From Spizellomyces punctatus DAOM BR117 (Eukaryota), in the NCBI GenBank assembly GCA_000182565.2, contig KQ257453.1: a stretch of DNA of 64,000 nucleotides; one strand, written 5' to 3'. Positions 58,842 through 64,000 of the stretch are shown in pieces. Positions within the stretch are counted from its first letter, which is position 1. Each line of letters begins with the position of its first letter. The notes below the pieces were generated by a model, which saw only the letters and a program-made list of their open reading frames with translations, was not told where the DNA came from and did no database searches. The position numbers were made by a program, and so were the translations under genes.

Positions 58842-59739
58842 ATGAGCGGTTCCGCAGCAGAATGGTCCAGCATGGCTGACGAGTATGAGAAAGTAGCCAC
58901 TGCGTTCACCATCCCGGTCGCTCAAGCCGCCTTGGCGCTACCCCTACTACCTACCGACAAACCTTTAAAGATCCTGGAGGTCGCATGCGGGTCCGGAGCA
59001 TTGACTGGTTTGCTTGCTGAGCGGTTCGCAGGCAGCGGGACGCAAATCGTGGCAACGGACTTTGCGGAGGGCATGGTAAAGTTTATGCAAAAGAAGGCCT
59101 CCGAAAATGGCTGGAAGAATGTTACAGGACAGGTTATGGATGCTACGGTAATTTCCTTACAGATTCATTCATTGGGCGATAACATTTATCCTCAATGTGC
59201 ATCCTTCTCTCGTCTTGCAGAAATTGAATGTTCCCGACAACTCTCTTGATGCCGTTTTCTGCATTTTTGGAATTATGCTCATGCCAGAGGGTTCCAAAGC
59301 CCTTGGCGAAATGCATCGCGTTCTCCATCGCAATGGCATTGCTTGTTATACGACATGGGGAGAAAAAGACTTTGATCCAATCATCCAAGAAGGTATCCGC
59401 CGTTCCAAGCAGCAAGTCCAGTATGACCAGCCACCCAGCGTGACGCGGACACCTGGCTGGAGCGACCTGGATTTCTGTATTGGAGAATTAGAAAAAACTG
59501 GGTTCTCAAAAGTGGAGGGGCAGAAGTATAGAGGAACCTGGGTAGTTAACGATCTAGACAAATTTCTCGGGCCTTTGGTAAGGAATCCTGGCATGAAGGG
59601 CTCGGTGCTCAAGGACTTTACTCCAGAGGAGCTTGAGCAGTTTCAGGCGCTACTCAAGCAACTCTTTCAGGAAAAGTATGGCGTAAAGGATATATACGAG
59701 TTTAATGTAGTGGCCAACATTGTTTTTGGACAAAAGTAA
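58842..59739 (+). CDS. Class I SAM-dependent methyltransferase (UbiE/Methyltransf_11-like)
   Basis: Motif I 'ILEVACGSG', 'ATDFAEGM', 'MDAT|KLNVPDNSLDAVFCIFG', 'EMHRVL...G'; one intron ~59147-59220. Confidence 0.9.
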
Positions 59740-60592
59740 TGCTTCACGCCTGTCATGTCATGAACGTCTTGCCGGATTGACTTGGATTTTGGGAATGTTG
59801 ACCAGGGAGGTGACCTACCGGGATTTATGGATGGGCTTTTGGAAAGTGCAATGTACTCCATGTGGCGGTAATGCAATCCTTCACGGAGATGAAAGTGTTG
59901 TGGAGGCGTCTGCCTCCGCGGGGCTGCGTTCCGCCTGGGCTCTTTACCAGCACATGCAAATGTCGTCCATGTCGTATTGTCAGTGTTTACATGACGGTCG
60001 CCACTAAGTCATAATCAGATCGCCATATCCTATTGTTTGATGCTCCATGTCCACATAAGTTCTAGGGTTATTGTTTGCGATGGCCGTGGAAAGGACATTC
60101 CAATGTCATATAAGGTATCGAGTCGATAAATACCAAGTTCCAGGCAATAGATCCGAAAATAGTTTGTATGTACAACCTTTAGAGCCAAGACTGGAGCGCA
60201 CTTTAGGTTGACTACTGTTTGGTGGGATTTTGGGCGTTAGCTGCGGAGGATTTCTATTTACTGGTTAACTTTAATTTTATGCGTAACAATGTTAAGCCTG
60301 CTTAATCCGGAGAGTTATGGCTGATCGGAACATGCATTGTCCATGTAGACAAAGGAGGCCGCCCTCCGGAACTTGCCCTGAAGAATATGACACATTTCGC
60401 CCATTGCTTGCATAAGGCCCAGTTCGAATCCAGAAACAATTGTATATTGCTGATCCGCATATGCATGCTTTGCGCCAATATCTTCATATAGTGCAAGCCG
60501 GGTATAAAAAGTGGCGGGCGCAAGATGCCCTCCCTCCGGTGTTTTCTGCCGTATAAGGTGCTAAACAGCGAAAAAGGCCTGCGACACAATCA

Positions 60593-62525
60593 ATGTCAGC
60601 TACAGGCAGTGGCCACGAGAACTCCCAGGCGTCCGCCGTCTCCAAAGCGGAAGATATAACGGAGGGAAAATGGCAGTCCAGATTCATGAAGGGTTTGAAG
60701 CAAGGAAGGCTCCCCATCAGTGCATTGATTATCATGTTCATTGTACCACTCGCAACCGGTGTTGCCATTTTAGCTTGGGGTTTAACGCATAGCGCGGCTT
60801 TGGTATGCAATAATATGAAAGCGTCTCTAGCGTTTCCGAATGGCTGAACAACATCTCCCACAAGGCCTCCGCAGCAAAGCTTGCAAATTCCTTGCAGGGA
60901 GAGGTATTTGTTGTCTCAAGAACCGCAGGTACTTGACTGGTGACTGAACAAATCTGTAGATCCTCGGTCGAATTTCAGCAGATATCCTTAACCGCCTGCA
61001 CGCCATGGAAAAATCAGTCGACGAACAGAAACGCAACTGGGCGCAAGGTCTATTCCAACTTGGCAATTATACAGGTGGCGATTATAGCGGGAAGGAGGAT
61101 GCCATGATGAGGATGTTCAGTACCCTCATCCCGCATGCTGATTTGTACATGTCTCAGCACTTTACCACAATGCCCGATGGAGAGTTTTGGGGTATCAATA
61201 ACTTTCTCAATGAGGACGGTACAAGAACGTTTCAACTAATGCGACAGTATGGGTTTGATTGGCATTTCTACGTTGGAAATGAGACCGATTACACAAACCG
61301 AACGACACCTTGGGAGGGGGGTGCATTGGACTTCAGCTGGGACAATAGAGCTAATCCTTGGGTTGCGGTACGATCTATTTGAATACTGATTGCACTCATG
61401 CTCACACTCGTTGATAAAAACTCTTCATACCAGCCGATTGATCAGACTCCTGAACCGGCCCGCTCTCAGCTATCTCTCTGGATTCCCCCTTACGTGCTTC
61501 CTGACTCGGCGGGCTTCGACGGATGGCTAACCTTCGCCAAGCCGATCTACAACCTAACCAAGGACTACATAGGGATTCAGGTAAGCATAAGCATACCTAA
61601 TGTGTTAGTATCAGTATGGCTAATGATGACAAACGTTACGTCTATGCGAAGGGATCCGATATGTCCTTGTCGTGGTTTGAGGGGCCGTTGAGACGCTATG
61701 CTCAATACATCCCGTACAGATCGGCGATATACGTGTTTGGACTGTATCCCGGCAAAGACGAGATAGTTGGAGCCTCTACGATAGCGAGCCGAGAGCTCAT
61801 AAAGAGCGCCGCGGAAGGCAACCCGGATCCAGCGCTCAACCGCCTTTTGACCATTCCCGAGCTTGCCGCAAATAGCTCTGTTTGGGAGCCTGTATCTGCC
61901 CTCTATAAATACCTTCTCGCAACGTCCGATGGTTCGCTCTACAAATTTGTTGGCGACTATCCCGGCACTTCCATTCAGCTAAAACTGTCTGACGGGCAAT
62001 ACATTGTTCAAGTCGAGCAAATACAAACATACAATTTGAACTGGGGCATCGTGCATATAGTCTCGCAAGACGACATCCTCGAAGAGCTGCACGCTAGCAA
62101 TACCAAAACCATTGGAACAGTCATTGGGGTTGTCGGCGCGGGTTGCGCTGTCGGGATTCTTTTCACATATTTCTTGTCAAAAGCGCTGTATATGATCACA
62201 CGAGATTTGGTTCTCCTATCCGACTTCAAATTTAAAGACGTACTCCAAAAGGATTTGGATAAAGAGACTGGAATGCGTCGACCACAGTATAGTCGAATCG
62301 CTGAGCTGTAAGTAGTGCGCCCTTACGCATCTCGTTTCTGTGAGCCCAAGTTAACAAACCTGTTCTGATCGTATGTGCAGATGGCAAATCCAGCGCGCGT
62401 TTCACAAGATGGTGGTTACGTTTGCCGATGCCGTTGCTCAAAATAAGCGGTTCAACGCTGCTGAACAACGCCGTACAATGTCCATGTCTTCTGCGCAGCC
62501 GGCGTCTCCCAGGAGTGAACTATGA
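60593..62525 (+). CDS. Two-TM membrane protein: TM1 - extracytoplasmic Cache-like region - TM2 - HAMP-like region, short tail
   Basis: TM1 'PISALIIMFIVPLATGVAILAWGL', helix 'KLANSLQGEILGRISADILNRL', 'LWIPPY...WLTFAKPIY', 'LNWGIVHIVSQDDILEEL', TM2, then 'LSKALYMITRDLVLLSDFKF...SRIAELWQIQRAFHKM'. Confidence 0.7.
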
Positions 62526-62796
62526 GCGCGAGAGGGTAGCAGTTGTCTGCACGGGTTGAACCTTGGAATAACATTCCAGAGCAAATACATTACTCCCTTG
62601 TTCCTGGCGAGAGTTCTGATTGCATGAGATACTCTCACCAGCTTGTACTAAAACTGAAGCTTTCAAGCTTGTAGATTAAAAAGGAGACGTTTTGGTTTCC
62701 ACTTTGTTTCGTAAGAAAAGCTTTATAGTCCGTTGTGGAAGAAGTTTCTTTGGACCATCTTTCAACATGTTTGATACTTGCTAGCAATCTAGCAGT

Positions 62797-64000
62797 CTAA
62801 AGGACCAATTGGCTGTCCTTGCAAGACATGGCGAAAGGTGCATCGTAGGTTAATTCCACGGTGCAGTTCATTTCCTTACTAAAGAAACCCGAACTCTCGC
62901 ACACTATTTTGTCCTTCAAGTGTGGTTCAACACAAGTCCCATGGGAAGCATCGATTTTGCGATCGAGATTTTGTCCCGGTACGGTCCTGGCAATCATGTC
63001 CCTAGAGTCTCTAGATGAATCCCGTGTCTCGACGTCGACTTCCCGTCCAGATGGAGAGCCGACAAGTGGCATGCCGTAGCTTACGTCGTAGCGCCAGGAC
63101 CATTATCGCTCCCGCTCGCAAGGATGGCACCTTTGCTCAAAGTAGAGCTTTTCGGATTTTGGAACTCGCTGACACTAACAAAATGGAAAGGATTCTACAA
63201 CGACGGCTCCTATTGCCATTCTAGCTGATTCGCGAAATTCAATATTCGCGTTAGTTACGATAAAATGCTACAATGCTGGGGTAAAGGTAAAAGGGGAGTG
63301 TGATCGTTCTTCAGTGAAGCAATCATTGTGGTTCATAATTGATATACGCCTTCTCGAGTTGGACGGATCGGACTGCCTGTACTGCCAATGCTGGATGATA
63401 ACATTCTTTGGGATAACTTTTGTTTGGCTAGGTTCATACGTTCCCCATATGCGGACGCGCTTGCCAGAGGTAGAGTAGATGAACTCTGCCATCTCAAATT
63501 AATGTAATCATATGCAAACTTTGGGCTGTATTCGTTTGCGCCTGTAAGCTCATCAATACCGATCTCATCATAAAACAAACAAGACAAGAGCTCCCCACCC
63601 AAATGAACTTCTGGTGTGGAACCAGGGAAGGATGGCCCTAATAGTAGAGATAATCGCTGGATGTGTCAAGTTTAGTAATTGAAAATGGTACTTTTCCCAT
63701 TTGGTGATAACAAGCGAATGAGCCGGCTTCTCAATCTCTCTGGGAGCCTAGTCACATCGCGCGCAACGCACAATGCTGTTGAACTGCCTCGTATTCTTCT
63801 TTGCTAAAGACCTCATTCTTGCGCGGGACAAGAGGAACGAGTTCCTGATTGGACGGCAATAAAGAGACCTGCGAGTACTCGTCTTCCCAAGAACTGTTAC
63901 GACCTCAAAGGGCAATAGTTGGACATCCTGCCTGATGCACCGCTGCTGTCGAGACTTTCAGTAATGACCACAAAAAGGTAAGTTTTCCGTCCTTCTTTTT
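62797..64000 (-). CDS. 3' part of an uncharacterised multi-exon gene (exon structure unresolved)
   Basis: Several coding-like minus-strand segments ('SWEDEYSQVSLLPSNQELVP', 'GSTPEVHLGGELLSCLFYDEIG', 'EFIYSTSGKRVRIWGTYE') with splice-like ends; no recognisable family. Confidence 0.4.

Follow-up and report, generated by a model that had tools for sequence, protein, structure and literature searches.

A double Cache receptor of bacterial design that ends shortly after a HAMP-like module in Spizellomyces punctatus and other zoosporic fungi

Introduction

The stretch of DNA analysed here (64,000 nucleotides (nt) of contig KQ257453.1, assembly GCA_000182565.2, from Spizellomyces punctatus DAOM BR117; hereafter the window) contains a gene, SPPG_02651, whose product poses a mechanistic question: what is the target of a HAMP signal when nothing is attached to the HAMP? 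A first-pass annotation made from the sequence alone had read the locus as an orphan receptor of bacterial style, with a Cache ectodomain and a HAMP-like module but no output domain, and had proposed that it might signal in trans, might heterodimerise with a catalytic paralog, and might have a role in zoospore chemotaxis. To our knowledge, no receptor has been described for the chemical sensing of chytrid and blastoclad zoospores, and only their light-sensing rhodopsin-cyclases have been worked out.

Here we report that SPPG_02651 codes for a two-pass, type-II-like membrane receptor that is complete and bacterial in design but has no catalytic or adaptor domain, and that it defines a conserved and expanded family of bacterial-type Cache receptors in zoosporic fungi. 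We first establish the gene and where it ends, then consider its ectodomain, its cytoplasmic module and its relatives, and finally weigh what such a protein might do.

Results

Gene structure and transcript

SPPG_02651 occupies positions 60593-62525 (+) and consists of six exons with a coding sequence of 1605 nt, giving a protein of 534 amino acids (aa; Table 1). It begins with an ATG at 60593 and closes with a TGA at 62523-62525, which a script check found to be the sole stop in frame, and its five introns, of 56-73 nt each, are GT..AG in every case. The public SPPG_02651 protein (P0015, 381 aa) is an exact suffix of this model; it starts at an internal methionine and is without the 153 N-terminal residues (exons 1 and 2 and part of exon 3; 60593-61169), in which the first transmembrane segment (TM1) and the stalk helix fall. 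These 153 residues are identical at 134 positions to the ortholog P0001 (532 aa) of Spizellomyces sp. 'palustris', and overall identity between the two proteins is 470/534 (88%). Since the reading frame is conserved in more than 40 relatives, it lies far beyond chance. The gene is intact, with normal introns, as had been claimed for it, and both the TATA box placed at 60503 and the motifs quoted from the protein (LANSLQGE/ILGRISADI, W-I-P-P-Y, LNWGIVHIV..DDILEEL and SRIAELWQIQRAFHKM) are present. Single-exon translations gave nothing useful against Pfam, and an NCBIfam search returned matches at chance level only.

RNA evidence for the locus comes from run X10, which carries the same species label and is strongly 3'-biased; about 6% of the run was sampled, and reads were placed on 60300-64000. 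The last intron is confirmed by three reads that end at 62307 and resume with the first 13 bases of exon 6. Four reads enter a run of 16 A after 62653, where the genome has only AAAA, and so mark a poly(A) site about 128 nt past the stop codon. Read depth is 30-36 at 62408-62655, falls to 10.5 at 62656-62779 and to 0.39 at 62780-62903, and is 0 at 62904-63399. No read joining SPPG_02651 to downstream sequence was reported among those placed on this interval, and tblastn with four cyclase-bearing relatives found no match anywhere in the 64-kb window.

Two strand patterns were seen in the same reads. First mates lie on the minus strand at 61044-61539 (depth 2.7-8.6, none on the plus strand), and on the plus strand, the same as the poly(A)-tailed reads, at 61664-62779. 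An antisense RNA of about 0.5 kb may run over exons 3 and 4; the minus strand of 61044-61539 has no open reading frame above 64 aa.

Other runs were set aside. X4 and X5 were rejected as RNA, since they are collinear with introns and one of them ends in vector polylinker, and they are therefore taken to be genomic DNA. X1 and X2 (root metatranscriptome, small shares) were not used for expression or habitat, X1 having yielded two short contigs, of which one follows the genomic DNA into intron 1 and the other is chimeric. An X1 contig matches 62104-62276 (173 nt, covering TM2 and HAMP helix 1) with one mismatch, its upstream 194 nt being unrelated; it may come from a relative that has the conserved module too, or may be an assembly chimera.

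Table 1. Features of the SPPG_02651 locus, in positions of the window
Feature	Position	Strand	Remarks and basis
TATAAAA	60503-60509	+	90 nt 5' of the ATG, promoter-like; read from the sequence
Exon 1 (aa 1-70): cytoplasmic N-terminus and TM1 (aa 38-66, 60704-60790)	60593-60802	+	Reading of open frame and splice sites, hydropathy, ortholog P0001
Exon 2 (aa 71-83): long stalk helix begins	60865-60903	+	Flanking GT..AG introns of 62 and 56 nt; length equals that in P0001
Exon 3 (aa 84-219): stalk helix and beginning of membrane-distal PAS-like module	60960-61367	+	Splice reading; fold via ortholog model
Exon 4 (aa 220-268): strands of distal module with W-x-x-P-Y motif	61434-61580	+	Splice reading
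Exon 5 (aa 269-487): G-x-Q-G-x-D motif, membrane-proximal module, TM2, first half of HAMP-like module	61652-62307	+	Splice reading, hydropathy; 3' boundary by RNA reads
TM2 (aa 420-444)	62105-62179	+	Hydropathy; HAMP-like module begins at 62180
Exon 6: HAMP helix 2, signature FHKMVVTFADAVAQNK (aa 494-509, 62400-62447), S/T/R-rich tail of 25 aa, TGA	62381-62525	+	RNA reads, hhalign, signature
3' untranslated region to poly(A) site	62526-62653	+	Poly(A)-tailed RNA reads

A double Cache ectodomain

The protein is laid out as a cytoplasmic N-terminus, TM1, an ectodomain of about 355 aa, TM2, a cytoplasmic module of 65 aa and a tail of 25 aa; the first-pass annotation had the order right and the ectodomain, at about 300 aa, too short. 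The two hydrophobic segments (aa 38-66 and aa 420-444) have KD19 values above 1.6, the first is preceded by four K/R residues, and all five N-x-S/T sequons lie between them.

Pfam models reach the ectodomain mostly below threshold. PF22673 (MCP-like_PDC_1), which models the first PDC module of dCache domains in chemoreceptors, gave sub-threshold matches in all seven close relatives (E 1.7e-5 to 0.014), and the ortholog P0001 scored 21.9 bits against a cut-off of 27, with no match to PF02743 (dCache_1). Among 42 family members, 10 matched PF22673 and three PF02743 at E<=0.01, and two Blastocladiella-type relatives exceeded the PF22673 cut-off (28.7 and 32.6 bits). The best match of the family profile to PDB sequences was only E 0.13 (Tlp3), and the fold was therefore settled by structure. 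An AlphaFold2 model of P0001, made with a 42-sequence alignment, has a mean pLDDT of 80.3, with the ectodomain mostly above 90. Foldseek comparison of this model with the PDB gave 125 matches at E<=1e-3, the best at E 4e-8, and the top matches were all double Cache (dCache) ligand-binding domains of bacterial chemoreceptors or kinases. VIA-align superposed residues ~59-423 on solved dCache domains with Z values of 17-20, 220-298 residues aligned and a root-mean-square deviation of 2.6-4.2 A. On the evidence of these matches the modelled ectodomain is a bacterial-type double Cache, uninterrupted by an insertion, as the Cache reading of the locus had anticipated.

To consider what it might bind, pocket positions were followed through an HMMER alignment to Tlp3, their correspondence to PctA numbering being in part assumed. 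The pocket-lining positions W217, Y239 and D270 are kept in 33, 29 and 40 of the 42 members, respectively, and W235 of the W-x-x-P-Y motif is present in 34. The column equivalent to R126 contains no R and a single K among the 42 members, and is N in SPPG_02651. The amino-acid motif of dCache_1AA has been given as Y121, R126, W128, Y144 and D173 of PctA (PMC8915833). Since no member has an arginine at the carboxylate-binding position R126, and one alone has K there, SPPG_02651 is predicted not to be a canonical amino-acid sensor. Several of the top structural matches, whose Z values differ by no more than 1-2 units, bind amines (PctD, McpX and TlpQ), and the tryptophan, tyrosine and aspartate positions kept in the family are those common to amine and amino-acid sensors. 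An amine or another small molecule is thus a possible ligand, as a lead only.

A divergent HAMP module and a family signature

The cytoplasmic module fits the layout of a HAMP domain, with a first helix after TM2, a connector, and a second helix of the form E-[IL]-x-x-[LI]-x-x-x-F-x-x-M. In HMMER alignments the family profile runs through TM2 in register with the Pfam HAMP segment (374-425) of the bacterial-type kinase P0132, and the start of HAMP helix 2, S-R-I-A-E, is matched there letter for letter. When 49 sequences from all subfamilies were aligned and compared by hhalign with 14 bacterial Pfam-HAMP segments, the match reached 95.2% (P 2.5e-8, score 41.1) and spanned all 53 HAMP columns and both helices, the highest score in 30 column shuffles being 23.5; the same module matched the HAMPs of eukaryotic cyclases at 95.3%. 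The close subfamily matched the juxtamembrane segments of nine eukaryotic cyclases at 84.5% (P 7e-6), and these segments in turn matched bacterial HAMP at 93.6%; shuffled or reversed controls for the close subfamily scored at most 13, compared with 21-30 observed. As a lead only, ESM Atlas features for residues 418-532 pointed to HAMP clusters in 18 of 30 named matches. The single-chain model of P0001 has a helix at 406-457, a short helix at 461-466, a low-confidence loop and a helix at 482-509. Taken at the level of sequence, the module is best read as a divergent HAMP.

HAMP helix 2 is followed immediately by a family signature, F-[AS]-x-x-[IV]-x-x-N-[KR], predicted to belong to a family-specific helix of 10-15 residues; in SPPG_02651 it reads FADAVAQNK (62421-62447). 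A low-complexity, disordered tail of 9-79 residues follows across the family. The stop codon had been put about 35 aa beyond the HAMP-like stretch and lies 37 aa after its last residues, AFHKM. Basic motifs of the form [RK][RK]x[ST] occur in 18 of 47 tails, compared with 6.1 in shuffles (none of 2000 shuffles as high, in a statistic that ignores kinship); several of the matches overlap the signature, and the tail of SPPG_02651 (62448-62522) has only RRTMS. Such motifs may be sites of phospho-regulation.

The module also varies within the family. In the subfamily of Spizellomycetales and Rhizophlyctidales, helix 1 has its F-K-F motif one heptad (7 residues) nearer TM2 than it is in other members, and the connector, compared with that of Blastocladiella and other chytrid members, is longer by 7 aa. 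Module length overall is the same. The shift was seen at 62180-62307 of the window, and the relatives P0044, P0060 and P0073 were named alongside it.

No known output domain was found with Pfam. SPPG_02651 has no Pfam match to Guanylate_cyc (PF00211); MCPsignal (PF00015) has no match in the 42 members nor in the 45 best representatives; HisKA and HATPase_c have no Pfam match in the family and are carried only by distant bacterial-type relatives; and a VWA domain was matched neither in close relatives nor in the 42 members.

A family of zoosporic fungi

Although the locus had been called an orphan, a word-based search returned 20 close relatives, 14 of them from Borealophlyctis nickersoniae, and among the others was SPPG_05787, a paralog in the same genome, together with two proteins of S. 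'palustris', one of Geranomyces and one unnamed. A profile search of 1.84 billion representatives gave 465 matches at E<=1e-3, 76 at E<=1e-10 and 32 at E<=1e-30. The same architecture as in SPPG_02651 is found in some 40-50 relatives sampled from Chytridiomycota and Blastocladiomycota. Among 18 members looked up, 15 are named and all 15 are zoosporic fungi, the other three being unnamed metagenome or Logan records. The named members belong to Powellomyces, Geranomyces, Gaertneriomyces, Fimicolochytrium, Phlyctochytrium, Blyttiomyces, Quaeritorhiza, Physocladia, Blastocladiella, Catenaria and Sorochytrium; taxonomy was checked for four species, and the remainder we take to be zoosporic fungi.

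These relatives end as SPPG_02651 does. In 38 of them the profile match begins at TM1 or the stalk, extends across the HAMP and leaves only 1-79 residues behind it; in more than 10 species, gene models made independently stop at the same point; and no catalytic Pfam domain was found in 43 of the 45 best representatives scanned, the other two having Guanylate_cyc. The signature is present in 49 of 180 fetched proteins, at a median of 31 aa from the C-terminus, with one exception, a 999-aa apparent tandem fusion (P0096); no kinase, cyclase or GGDEF relative within this set carries it. The absence of an output domain, as first proposed, is therefore seen in the gene, in the transcript and across the family.

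Two observations touch on how the family grows. The Geranomyces proteins P0024 and P0168 have consecutive locus tags (HDU90_002115 and HDU90_002116) on one contig and may be neighbours, and the model of P0096 resembles two fused family genes; together they suggest tandem duplication.

Conservation is uneven along the protein. In 11 close sequences the mean frequency of the major residue is 0.84 in the HAMP-like region, compared with 0.56-0.59 in the ectodomain modules, and in 42 sequences the values are 0.54 and 0.36-0.38; the last 23 residues are the least conserved part. Paralogs, such as the 14 Borealophlyctis clusters, differ mainly in their extracellular part and are nearly identical in the cytoplasmic module, which is kept from Blastocladiomycota to Chytridiomycota. 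Varied ectodomains joined to a near-constant module form the pattern of a receptor repertoire with one downstream interface.

Catalytic relatives

Catalytic relatives had been expected, and they exist. Among relatives that carry an output domain, the nearest are the dCache-HAMP-class III cyclases P0065 of Borealophlyctis (E 1e-18), P0076 of Rhizophlyctis and P0150 of Geranomyces, all from chytrids; P0172 of Rhizophlyctis and P0173 of Fimicolochytrium are further chytrid cyclases of this kind. After the chytrid cyclases come those of protists (Andalucia, Apiculatamorpha and Mastigamoeba), followed by bacterial-type kinases and GGDEF/EAL proteins. In the cyclases the HAMP continues into an A-F-x-[KR]-[FY]-V-P linker and the catalytic domain. 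Two distant relatives, P0139 and P0156, are single proteins of about 1240 aa in which a dCache and a class III cyclase are fused to a sodium:dicarboxylate symporter domain.

A tree of 73 rows included 34 labelled as output-less; all but one of these, 33 in number, stand together with three long-N-terminus forms (SH-aLRT 94), while one long-branch member and the cyclase P0150 have an uncertain position at the base. Constraining 37 rows together, a group to which three rows were added after the tree had been seen, gave a better likelihood and was not rejected (p-AU 0.693). When long-branch rows were left out, the 30 output-less rows of a 57-row tree formed one side of a branch with SH-aLRT 98. 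These trees group the output-less family as one clade apart from the dCache-HAMP-cyclases of chytrids and protists. They are unrooted, and are therefore compatible both with loss of a cyclase in the family and with an origin without one.

Neighbouring sequence

In the neighbouring gene upstream of SPPG_02651, the last exon (59152-59739, +) has a match to Methyltransf_11 (E 3e-7), a class I SAM-dependent methyltransferase domain. The open reading frames downstream at 62797-63665 have no Pfam match.

Discussion

What the receptor may do

Neither a non-Cache ectodomain nor splicing onto a catalytic exon was found: the modelled fold is dCache, and the transcript is polyadenylated without a downstream exon. 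The reading that we favour, and hold to be slightly better than an even bet, is that SPPG_02651 is a dimeric, ligand-gated dCache-HAMP sensor in which the HAMP and the signature helix are themselves the output, acting on a separate conserved effector. A small molecule would bind the membrane-distal module of the receptor dimer, the resulting change would be relayed through the stalk and TM2 into the HAMP bundle, and the HAMP with its signature helix would present an output surface that binds or releases an effector in the cytoplasm or the membrane.

Several observations weigh against this reading or parts of it. The HAMP assignment, also made in the first-pass annotation, holds in profile-profile comparison and fails with the Pfam HAMP model (PF00672), which matched none of the 42 members at E<=0.01; the isolated C-terminal fragment of 112 aa had no Pfam HAMP match even at E<=10, and the close subfamily alone reached only 34% (P 4e-4) in hhalign against the 14 bacterial HAMP segments. 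The model of P0001 is uncertain at residues 461-480 (pLDDT below 50), and the displaced F-K-F motif and longer connector mean that the geometry of the HAMP bundle may differ. At the level of the gene, RNA support is confined to exons 3-6, with none seen over exons 1-2 in the sampled part of the 3'-biased run; reads over exons 3-4 are oriented opposite to those over exons 5-6; and the sole contig from an RNA library over exon 1 runs collinear with the DNA into intron 1. Finally, ESM Atlas has, as a lead, bacterial clusters (360-440 aa) in which dCache and HAMP are the only domains, so that the bare layout may exist in bacteria too.

A more far-reaching version of the sensor reading is that the family is a eukaryotic chemoreceptor class specific to flagellated fungi, in which the HAMP and signature helix form a new transmitter module that docks on an effector steering the zoospore, for example a cyclic-nucleotide or calcium component. 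We put this forward tentatively, as a possibility well short of even. If it were true, expansions of paralogs such as the 14 Borealophlyctis clusters would make up the set of chemical senses available to the fungus.

The question of a partner leads to the cyclases. A class III cyclase needs two catalytic domains, and SPPG_02651 might be a regulatory subunit that heterodimerises through its ectodomain, TM segments and HAMP with a dCache-HAMP-class III cyclase paralog, silencing it or tuning its ligand range. The chytrid cyclases listed above (P0065, P0076/P0172, P0173 and P0150) are candidates of the right kind in related species, their HAMP is homologous to the family module (84.5-95.3% in hhalign), and obligate heterodimeric receptor cyclases, RGC1/2 with NeoR, have been reported from chytrid zoospores (PMC7655827). 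The family nevertheless forms a clade separate from the cyclases, and its own invariant HAMP sequence, together with a signature helix that occurs in no cyclase relative, favours a distinct interface over pairing with the HAMP of a cyclase. Protein databases gave no dCache-cyclase of S. punctatus; a word-based search with P0076 returned four proteins, none from this species, which is no evidence of absence. The tblastn search placed no cyclase in the 64-kb window. Since the family HAMP has its own signature, missing from the cyclase relatives, the heterodimer variant first proposed for the locus appears to fit less well than the separate-effector sensor, and we consider the cyclase-subunit role unlikely.

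It is less likely again that the protein does not signal at all and is a decoy or clearance receptor, comparable to NPR-C, or serves adhesion or nutrient capture, so that only its ectodomain matters. The missing output domain would suit such a protein, as would a confidently modelled ligand-binding fold whose pocket residues are kept at the frequencies given above. The most conserved part, however, is the cytoplasmic module and not the ectodomain, and the module is kept from Blastocladiomycota to Chytridiomycota; a decoy would not need it, and this pattern speaks against a pure decoy.

By analogy with alpha2delta and CACHD1 of animal calcium channels, the protein might instead be an auxiliary subunit of an ion channel or transporter, which its TM segments and HAMP-like helix would touch. 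That analogy, the restriction of named members to flagellated fungi, and the symporter domain fused to dCache in the distant cyclase relatives P0139 and P0156 are consistent with such a role, but SPPG_02651 has no VWA domain, its likeness to alpha2delta is limited to the Cache fold, and nothing in the data points to a channel; we regard it as quite improbable. An annotation artefact or decaying gene, with a catalytic domain encoded elsewhere or a pseudogene left over from a receptor cyclase, might be suspected from the wrong 5' end of the public model and from low RNA depth with none over exons 1-2, but is very improbable given poly(A) tails 128 nt past the stop without downstream joints, a frame open over six exons with canonical introns, independent models in more than 10 species that end alike, and 88% identity to the sister-species ortholog that includes the unannotated N-terminus.

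For the favoured sensor reading the locus offers direct experimental targets. S. punctatus can be transformed, so that SPPG_02651, its single paralog and the 15-aa signature helix are open to knock-out, tagging and the hunt for a partner, and the ectodomain is a defined construct for ligand screens.

Comparison with known systems

The modules of SPPG_02651 are known; what appears to be undescribed in the literature searched is a clade of flagellated fungi in which an architecture without output domain is conserved and has a signature of its own after the HAMP. Searches on Cache, dCache and HAMP in chytrids and zoospores and on both locus tags returned no description of the family, although bioRxiv supplements and the datasets of the Cache papers may list it. 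Two reference papers on Cache domains, in the passages that bear on the matter, miss the family and state otherwise for fungi and eukaryotes.

NPR-C is a paralog of receptor cyclases that keeps the ligand-binding ectodomain and a short cytoplasmic tail and has lost the cyclase. Its ectodomain is unrelated (periplasmic-binding-protein-like), it has no HAMP, and its key part is the ectodomain, whereas in the SPPG_02651 family the cytoplasmic stub is the most conserved part.

Among fungal two-pass membrane proteins, the ectodomain of the Sln1-type osmosensing histidine kinase has been assigned to dCache_1 (PMC4822843). Sln1 carries kinase and receiver domains, of which SPPG_02651 has neither, and it was absent from the profile matches examined.

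Like SPPG_02651, the alpha2delta and CACHD1 proteins are membrane proteins of eukaryotes that have dCache_1 modules but lack an enzymatic domain; they are described as having a VWA domain inserted in a Cache module, in a nested double dCache (PMC8915833). Unlike them, SPPG_02651 has a plain bacterial-type dCache and a HAMP, and the arginine of the amino-acid motif is absent. Passages of the same paper state that all eukaryotic dCache_1 domains carry the VWA insertion and that fungi have no dCache_1AA (PMC8915833). The protist class III cyclases P0086 (Andalucia godoyi), P0141 (Apiculatamorpha spiralis) and P0142 (Mastigamoeba balamuthi) contrast with the statement on the insertion: they match the dCache/HAMP profile fully or partly, Pfam detects in them only Guanylate_cyc, and P0086 and P0141 have a HAMP-like juxtamembrane segment.

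The nearest catalytic relatives, the chytrid and protist dCache-HAMP-class III cyclases (P0065, P0076, P0150, P0086 and P0142; E 1e-18 to 1e-13), share the family's type of ectodomain and a homologous HAMP. They part from it after the HAMP, where the cyclases go into the AF-x-[KR]-[FY]-V-P linker and Guanylate_cyc, and the SPPG_02651 family goes into FAxA[IV]xxN[K/R] and then stops; the two lie on opposite sides of a well-supported branch.

The closest likeness in design is to the bacterial dCache_1-HAMP sensors (the chemoreceptors PctA, PctD, Tlp3 and Mlp24, sensor kinases, and GGDEF/EAL proteins), which have the same order of TM1, stalk helix, two PAS-like modules, TM2 and HAMP. The structural match to them has Z values of 17-20, the family profile reaches them at E 1e-11 to 1e-7, and the HAMP is in register. 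Unlike these sensors, which continue into other domains, SPPG_02651 ends after its signature helix and a short tail, without MCPsignal, HisKA/HATPase, GGDEF or cyclase; and it is a gene of a eukaryotic host, with introns, with N-glycosylation sequons in its ectodomain, and with a sequence too divergent for Pfam thresholds, built on what is otherwise the plan of a bacterial receptor.

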